From contig OZ024749.1 in NCBI GenBank assembly GCA_964016885.1, positions 8,494,001 through 8,558,000 on the forward strand: a stretch of 64,000 nt of DNA, in the 5' to 3' direction. The position numbers and the translations under genes were made by a program. The notes beneath the pieces were generated by a model. The model was not told the origin of the DNA and searched no databases. It saw only the letters and a program-made list of their open reading frames with translations. Positions 6,558 to 6,996 of this stretch are shown here, piece by piece. Origin of the DNA: Eledone cirrhosa (lineage: Eukaryota). Each line of letters starts with the position of its first letter. Position 1 is the first letter of the stretch.

Positions 6558-6588
6558 TAAGATCAAAGATGGTTAAATGAGTTCCATG

Positions 6589-6659
6589 TATTTTATTATG
6601 CGCATTTCAAAAACAAATATCATCATGCAATAACATTTGTGTTTACATCAGATAAAATA
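6589..6659 (-). ncRNA. Hammerhead ribozyme (family A) with mutated core CUGAUGU
   Basis: Reverse complement reads tattttat CTGATGT aaacacaaat...atttgttttt GAAA TGCGCA TA ataaaata. Confidence 0.65.
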
Positions 6660-6754
6660 GGAAGACATGATATGAAGGTTAAAAACACTTGTGGATAGTG
6701 CAGTTTTAAATCAACATATCCACAAGTGTTTTTAATCTTCATATCATGTCTCCC

Positions 6755-6825
6755 TATTTTATCTGATGAAAACACAAATGTTATTGCATGATGATATTTG
6801 TTTTTGAAATGCGCATAATAAAATA
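6755..6825 (+). ncRNA. Type I hammerhead ribozyme (family A)
   Basis: tattttat CTGATGA aaacacaaatgttattgcatgatgatatttgttttt GAAA TGCGCA TA ataaaata. 8-bp stem I, long stem II, palindromic stem III (ATGCGCAT), AUA triplet. Confidence 0.85.
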
Positions 6826-6996
6826 CATGGAACTCATTTAACCATCTTTTGATCTTATATATTATGTATACTCCAGTCCTACAAACTGTAGAGTGCTTCT
6901 TATCCTATATCTGCATTGCTTTATTGTACTACAATAAAACTCACCTCCTACATATATATATAGAGATATGTATATATATAGAGATATGTATAGAGA

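Follow-up and report, generated by a model that had tools for sequence, protein, structure and literature searches.

Two short elements in the 64-kb window (the whole stretch of DNA analysed here, C9:8494001-8558000 of the genome) consist of inverted copies of one sequence joined head-to-head, and they carry hammerhead motifs and no coding sequence. How do such palindromes arise? In the initial annotation they were read as minimal units made of pLTR alone, which are mobilised in trans and mirror tandem retrozymes in inverted form, and it linked them to Penelope-like elements (PLEs), whose insertions can have inverted pLTRs. The window copies are set here against a parent element, a sample of related loci and published systems.

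Two unequal palindromes in (TA)n tracts

Elements 1 (6558-6952) and 2 (21475-21979, one base longer than first annotated) are real inverted repeats, each head-to-head and each inside a (TA)n tract. Their pivot points differ, as had been claimed: the arms of element 1 share a TAT overlap at 6717-6719, and those of element 2 meet in an A-run at about 21773-21777. Positions written rN refer to one real parent copy of this family (family A), the minus strand of locus L031, in which r1 lies just past the upstream pLTR and the 3' end is r3708 (plus a final A). Its ORF starts at r84 and stops at r2478, the hammerhead core is at r3520 and the predicted cut is at r3574/3575. The family A features of the window are the following.

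6553-6719, minus strand: short (tail-less) arm of element 1; pLTR, r3451 (5'-end hot spot) to r3617-3622 (internal TA run); the (TA)n target blurs its outer end
6589-6659, minus strand: hammerhead motif of element 1; core CUGAUGU, with A9 changed to U at 6645; predicted impaired
6717-6719, no strand: junction of element 1; 3-nt TAT overlap shared by the arms
6717-6952, plus strand: long arm of element 1; pLTR from r3473 to the fixed 3' end ...CTCCTACA
6755-6825, plus strand: type I hammerhead motif of element 1, with AUA triplet and palindromic stem III; cleavage predicted after 6817
6866-6952, plus strand: one-sided 87-nt tail of element 1, spanning the interval between two putative reverse-transcription start sites
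21475-21773, minus strand: long arm of element 2; r3413 to the fixed 3' end, with the tail at 21475-21561
21602-21672, minus strand: hammerhead motif of element 2; core intact
21774-21776, no strand: junction of element 2, within the A-run; exact position ambiguous
21777-21979, plus strand: short arm of element 2; r3420 to the internal TA run, passing the r3451 site at 21808 uninterrupted
21869-21939, plus strand: hammerhead motif of element 2; core intact, predicted cut after 21931
52020-52205, plus strand: divergent lone short arm, at 81% to the parent copy; extends from r3449 to the TA run
52086-52156, plus strand: hammerhead motif, triplet AUC; stem II has five changes, each one-sided and pair-preserving

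The two arms of each element are thus unequal, one carrying the 87-nt tail and the other ending at the internal TA run. The short arm of element 1 ends at r3451. In element 2, both arms overrun this site by 30-40 nt, and element 2 is therefore an ordinary truncation of a 3' pLTR. Upstream of the lone arm at 52020-52205, no inverted partner was found.

A tblastn search of the 64-kb window with the parent protein gave no match, in agreement with the original description of the palindromes as non-coding. A simple ORF scan of the window recognised no host gene, and the window-wide inverted-repeat scan was dominated by TA satellites. Other mobile sequences are also present. A second hammerhead family, with the stem I of family A and a different stem II, lies head-to-head at 31948-32510; its arms (31948-32112 and 32260-32422) are 96% alike, with a hammerhead on each strand and one arm continuing to a (TA)n end. 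Pieces related to this second family flank L025 and L032. A third, unrelated type I hammerhead motif (minus strand, 40175-40232) has stem I ACUGC/GCAGU and a stem III of TA repeats; a (TA)n tract is about 45 nt away. In addition, a stop-to-stop frame of 759 residues (minus strand, 8216-10492) resembles the ORF of another retroelement, and fragments of several LINE-like RT frames occur at 25466-28113, 46394-47485, 49840-51127 and 55806-56744.

Hammerhead motifs and the long hairpin

A motif scan of the window returned type I hammerheads at +6763, +21877 and -21664, and an AUC version at +52094. The layout is an 8-bp stem I, CUGAUGA, a long stem II, GAAA, a palindromic AUGCGCAU stem III and AUA. 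Each palindrome had been said to carry one hammerhead per strand. This holds for element 2, in which both cores are intact, and fails for element 1, on whose minus strand (core CUGAUGU) the scan returned nothing.

Rfam at its gathering threshold returned nothing for the window. In isolation, the 71-nt hammerhead does not exceed shuffled sequences in stability (z -0.74; z -3.0 for the AUC copy). Identification as a putative ribozyme draws on the motif and on variation that preserves pairing. At 52086, the third family member reported at the outset, five changes in stem II each fall on one side, and all keep the pairing in two folds. Common variants in a set of 39 distinct hammerhead sequences, which affect five stem II pairs and one stem I pair, are likewise one-sided and pair-preserving; no two-sided change was found among them. 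The intact core with AUA is present in 94 of 108 arms, a proportion that is partly an effect of sample selection.

Cleavage or circles from the palindromic units appear unlikely, because a transcript of either strand contains one sense hammerhead that is base-paired to its own antisense copy, and because hammerheads with a short palindromic helix III are described as requiring a second copy close by for good cleavage (PMC4209133). Ribozyme cleavage was also considered as the origin of the arm 5' ends and was ruled out, since a start no more than 3 nt from the predicted cut was seen in 1 arm out of 126.

The long hairpin expected from the inverted structure is readily predicted: the plus strand of element 1 folds as a single hairpin of about 140 bp at -223.5 kcal/mol (z -30), and 0 of 100 shuffles are equally stable. 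Thousands of near-perfect 170-bp hairpins could be sources of dsRNA, if transcribed. As to the early suggestion that such hairpins may feed ADAR or Dicer, no excess of A>G was seen at the DNA level among 200 private substitutions, and the sampled arms show no A>G hyper-editing, with at most two A>G changes in each.

A parent element of the Hydra clade

A search of the 3.0-Gb genome with one arm gave 258 candidates, of which 40 were scored, at 94-100% identity. Among 30 candidate copies that were fetched, 28 finish at a common 3' end adjoining a TA or CA run, and two continue into an ORF. The supposed link to an autonomous PLE was borne out by L031, in which an open RT-endonuclease ORF of 798 aa lies between two pLTRs. 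A second long copy, L032, has an ORF between upstream and downstream pLTRs, with a stop-to-stop frame of 771 residues.

The L031 protein contains RWI at residue 37, DKT at 123, QFD at 261, YRDD at 356, CNCPVKNKC at 657, YFG at 691, CNLC at 757 and CLH at 785, giving a CxCX5C linker, and CxxC and CxH in the C-terminal endonuclease. Pfam returned no significant family for this ORF, and the Penelope-like and Hydra assignments come from setting its motifs by eye against the alignment published for the Hydra clade. As in EN+ Penelope-like elements, a single ORF appears to encode both an RT and an endonuclease of GIY-YIG type at the C terminus. A scan for G.K[FY] (GxKF/Y) found none, as the Hydra-clade definition requires, and the parent protein has RWI at the site aligned with the clade's RWK. 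Judged from these motifs, the parent protein fits the Hydra clade as defined in PMC8557442. Membership of Naiad was rejected, the endonuclease being C-terminal and a hammerhead present. Family A is, in our verdict, a new family of a known clade.

Some further features of these copies deserve mention. Residues ~570-655 of the L031 ORF form an Asn-rich stretch between RT thumb and endonuclease (14.8% Asn in the whole protein), which recalls the N-rich inserts described in rotifer Penelope ORFs (PMC3846280). A CA/TA microsatellite in the element's own 3' region (L031 oriented ~4325-4410; r2522-2606) varies in length among copies and could be a self-target that seeds tandem pLTRs. Near family A copies, L032:9079-9552 and L036 (oriented frame 3772-2774) hold pieces of other Penelope-like families, with a Hydra-type endonuclease end and a YLDD-type RT.

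Short ORF-less palindromes in TA targets look like MITEs. The parent element refutes an origin as a MITE or foldback DNA transposon bounded by long terminal inverted repeats: pivots and junctions vary, the two ends differ in extent, and the sequence is the pLTR of an element encoding an RT. The single pivot that would mark such a transposon was not seen; a target-site duplication cannot be read within (TA)n. An assembly artefact is similarly hard to credit. Head-to-head joints are present in contigs of public runs, which may include the assembled sample, and among the pieces listed that map onto element 2, none covers the entire element.

Two fixed ends and a head-to-head bias

A 31-mer taken from the hammerhead has 14,448 exact matches in the genome. 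The first 100 of these, which all lie on contig C1, group into 69 loci and point to about 10,000 loci in the genome. All 69 were fetched and mapped against a masked reference; microsatellite matches flood an unmasked one. Sampling by a 31-mer inside the hammerhead biases the observed arm lengths and proportions, not the existence of the geometries.

The neighbours within 6 kb among these 100 matches comprise 27 head-to-head, 4 tandem and 0 tail-to-tail cases against a chance expectation of about 0.6 neighbours. At least three of the four same-strand neighbours are pLTR-ORF-pLTR copies 3.7-4.4 kb apart, and none of the four is an array. The 3' ends of the arms (n=125, 69 loci) fall at two fixed places about 87 nt apart: r3706-3708 accounts for 64 of them and r3613-3627, as called, for 60, the TA target blurring a true short end of r3617-3622. 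Nearly all arm 3' ends are directly followed by (TA)n. For one copy, a single MFE fold shows a hairpin beside the short end. At the long 3' end of L002, L004, L006, L017, L024 and L029, extra CA or CCTACA units precede (TA)n, as if the first template bases had been copied repeatedly at initiation.

A head-to-head junction is present in 49 of the 69 loci, and in about 20 the partner arm was not seen. Script classification, with the window copies removed and L115 and L117 skipped, gave 43 pairs of one long-ended and one short-ended arm: 25 are pLTR-only, 6 extend to the 3' UTR and 12 to the ORF. The palindromes are the short end of this continuum, which speaks against a separate class of minimal pLTR-only units mobilised in trans. 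The script also called L081, L096 and the second L114 junction long plus long. L081 and L096 really combine a long end with a full-length short-ended arm, L114 is undecidable as it is cut by the locus end, and L126 and L086 genuinely have two long ends. In L132, the head-to-head junction is the exact site of a foreign 194-nt insert, which contains a hairpin of its own.

Arm lengths within a pair are independent. The short-ended arm reaches further toward 5' in 27 of the 43 pairs, the long-ended arm in 7, and the two are equal in 9; in 6 pairs the arms have no sequence in common. This bears on self-priming, or fold-back, in which one cDNA or antisense template turns back and copies itself into an inverted arm, as has been proposed for rotifer Penelope elements (PMC3846280). 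Such copying demands that the second arm be contained in the first, whereas the 27 tail-less arms that reach further 5' are paired with an arm bearing a tail that they lack. Fold-back cannot yield these pairs because neither arm contains the other, and the pairs with zero overlap likewise argue against it. It would agree with the alleles common to both arms of one insertion (see below) and with some 670 elements whose pivot is a perfect CATATG palindrome. However, arms also stop at r3451 with no palindromic partner (L094, L105, L140, L156, L169 and L170). Fold-back is improbable overall: it is contradicted for most pairs and could hold only for the 16 in which the tailed arm contains the other.

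Shared alleles and recurrent junctions

At 26 subfamily-diagnostic columns, arms of the same pair mismatch at 16 of 724 comparisons (2.2%), against 5402 of 23740 (22.8%) between insertions. The within-pair comparison covers 34 pairs, of which 24 are without difference and 10, including element 1, differ at one site or more. Total within-pair divergence (104/4758) is close to the level of private divergence among copies, which suggests arms that were alike from birth and makes later homogenisation unnecessary. Private divergence is roughly 1% per copy, and the loci are young.

Could the arms nevertheless be two independent insertions into a (TA)n hot spot, or products of later recombination or gene conversion? 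Many elements do collect in (TA)n tracts, and L086 combines two long ends with a 2.2-kb spacer and 4 diagnostic differences. As a general rule, however, independent insertion is refuted by the 27 to 0 orientation bias, by the pairing of one long with one short end, by 5' ends that directly abut and by the shared subfamily alleles, while the within-pair divergence calls for no later homogenisation. A very improbable origin for the family, it may apply to rare loci.

Seven junction types recur among about 110 loci of one contig and the window, each in at least two subfamily haplotypes. For example, the junction of element 1 occurs at five loci (the others being L106, L136, L153 and L164) in five haplotypes. 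Since identical junctions are found in different subfamilies, junctions form anew, and the early proposal that the inversion is created anew at each insertion is supported.

The same data weigh on the idea of a non-autonomous family, in which palindromes of 400-500 bp would be transcribed and moved as units in trans. pLTR-only pairs are the largest class above, a few junction types recur many times, pLTRs alone are reported to suffice for moving captured DNA in a rotifer (PMC3846280), and animal retrozymes have been proposed as derivatives of PLE pLTRs (10.64898/2026.07.22.740005). Against this, all seven recurrent junction types span different subfamily haplotypes, as independent formation predicts, and palindrome lengths run continuously up to ORF-reaching copies. 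No arm reads through an older junction, the mark of a recopied palindrome, in the 69 loci inspected by eye, and no other sign of a palindrome being recopied was found. Arm starts are unrelated to the ribozyme cut, and the tandem sense hammerheads needed for circle formation are absent. Mobilisation of the palindromes as units, and with it the inverted counterpart of retrozymes, is thus quite improbable.

A 5'-end hot spot at r3451

Across the sampled copies, the pivots varied and were not random. A strong hot spot at r3449-3453 holds 31 of the 65 arm 5' ends in r3400-3560. Genome-wide, the exact 19-mer starting at r3451 (n=12,419) is preceded by the templated C in 7,673 cases and by another base in 4,746; 1,340 of the C-preceded 19-mers are perfect palindromic overlaps. 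At least 6,086 of the 12,419 arms with the exact 19-mer end at the r3451 base. In contigs of public runs, all 15 joints listed, out of 101, end at 21804-21812, which is the r3451 site.

The r3451 base is probably an RNA 5' end. Some long copies (L031, L032 and L097) extend upstream of it in the first pLTR, and r3451 is therefore not the sole template start. An untemplated G is described as a mark of a copied cap (PMC3287187). G makes up 2,329 of the 4,746 non-C bases before the 19-mer genome-wide (49%), a share that is inflated because the partner arm can supply G at overlaps and blunt joins, as it could at 21 of 41 inspected G junctions. Among hand-sorted untemplated inserts, G was found in 8 of 15 at the hot spot versus 5 of 32 elsewhere (p=0.013). 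The cap-derived G signal at r3451 is weak and suggestive only.

The first 8 template bases, ATATGTTG, are reiterated at 179 sites, at least three copies being present at 14 sites and five at most; the read-through context has only 1 such site. For instance, L198 (G000:C3:99545599-99548628), L199 and L184 carry four to five tandem copies of the arm's first 8 bases at the head-to-head junction. The reiteration is thus tied to junctions. The read-through control (p about 1e-54) excludes later slippage only and does not separate RT from host repair. A templated duplication is also found at a junction outside the hot spot (L093), with a roughly similar rate, and synthesis during host end-joining consequently explains the 8-mer repeats equally well. 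It is conceivable, and in our view rather doubtful, that the junctions record Penelope integration itself. A dimeric RT would copy one capped RNA twice from two fixed starts, run off the 5' end, sometimes realign on a 2-nt repeat and recopy the last 8 template bases up to five times. Repeats would thereby be added in the manner of telomerase, at the boundary of a template and by an enzyme that is telomerase's sister.

Two probable primings at a cut target

With a probability that we put at about 0.75, the palindromes represent ends, truncated at 5', of a Penelope-like retroelement of the Hydra clade that has its intact parent in this genome, each end palindrome being produced by two separate rounds of reverse transcription primed off both cut strands of a (TA)n target. 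Under this model, the RT-endonuclease of the element would nick (TA)n on both strands. One nick would prime at the pLTR 3' end (...CTCCTACA), and the other at a UAUAUA run that lies about 87 nt upstream and is able to pair with a TA primer. The one-sided tail would follow from the spacing of the two priming sites. The same RNA, or RNAs of one source locus, would serve as template for both cDNAs, which would stop independently, and the cDNA ends would be joined head-to-head via overlaps of 0-5 nt or short inserts. Supporting such a scheme, the PAc protein is reported to nick and extend both strands in vitro and to start reverse transcription at two internal sites that bracket the tail (PMC11167929).

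Priming in the first pLTR of the transcript would let the cDNA run off the RNA 5' end at r3451. Arms would then be limited to at most 258 and about 170 nt, and the product would be a palindrome of about 430 bp without an ORF. The pLTR-only class was likely made in cis by such run-off, a simple origin for ORF-less pLTR palindromes. The hammerheads would be passengers of the pLTR; PAc insertion in vitro is described as independent of ribozyme cleavage (PMC11167929). The palindromes are most likely dead on arrival.

Comparison with known systems

As objects, the palindromes are ordinary, being truncated Penelope-like insertions of a published shape. An inverted copy with a tail is the standard PLE layout (PMC8557442), and the origin of inverted pLTRs and tails is called unresolved in the same work (Craig et al. 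2021). That work also describes C-terminal EN+ PLEs of the Hydra clade, such as Penelope-13_HM and Hydra-1_Obim, the former recorded as having an inverted copy truncated at 5' and one hammerhead per strand. Family A shares with this clade the DKT, YRDD, CxCX5C linker and CxxC and CxH endonuclease motifs, a hammerhead close to the 3' end and (TA)n targets (PMC8557442). It differs in having RWI in place of RWK, a unit of about 3.7 kb (usually <3 kb in the clade) with a 3' region of about 1.2 kb and an Asn-rich linker, a hammerhead with a longer stem II and an AUA triplet, a tail of about 87 nt instead of 30-40, and about 10,000 loci.

In Schistosoma mansoni, dual minimal hammerheads on opposite strands, 100-700 bp apart, were read as truncated PLEs (Cervera and de la Pena 2014, PMC4209133). 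They resemble family A in this opposition and in a short palindromic helix III that needs a dimer; arm ends, junctions and mechanism, analysed here, do not appear in the accessible part of that report. In EN+ PLEs such as Pen2a_Av (Arkhipova et al. 2013, PMC3846280), inverted copies are likewise joined head-to-head, the inverted pLTR is the shorter one, a tail may be present and palindromes occur at junctions. That study favours self-priming, whereas the arm geometry of family A contradicts fold-back. Animal non-LTR retrozymes (10.64898/2026.07.22.740005; PMC7229834) are likewise non-coding, with a type I hammerhead and kinship to PLE pLTRs. They are, however, described as tandem same-strand units with at least two hammerheads, while each strand of the palindromes carries a single sense hammerhead, and signs of self-propagation were not found.

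In the literature searched, double priming with fixed starts in PLEs was not found, nor were reports of reiterated 8-mer-type addition or cap junctions in PLEs; for double priming, subscription papers and the supplements of PMC11167929 and PMC3846280 may hold it. The PAc Poseidon system (Frangieh et al. 2024, PMC11167929) agrees with the present reading in both-strand nicks, two internal RT starts that define the tail and AT-rich targets. It belongs to a different clade, and its available text neither reports a difference in start site between strands nor assigns the start sites one to each arm of an inverted insertion. The arm geometry of family A connects this in vitro result to genomic structure. 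The family offers about 10,000 young loci, its geometry rejects fold-back and fits two primings at two fixed sites, and the analysis names the exact bases of two putative start sites and one probable RNA 5' end.

A related principle is known from L1 twin priming, which Ostertag and Kazazian are said to have described in 2001. There, the second target strand reportedly primes a second cDNA, giving a 5' inversion joined at microhomology, with a variable second start and arms that do not overlap. In family A, by contrast, the second start is fixed and the arms usually overlap, and therefore one stretch of RNA would have been copied twice, or two RNAs or pLTR copies would have been used.
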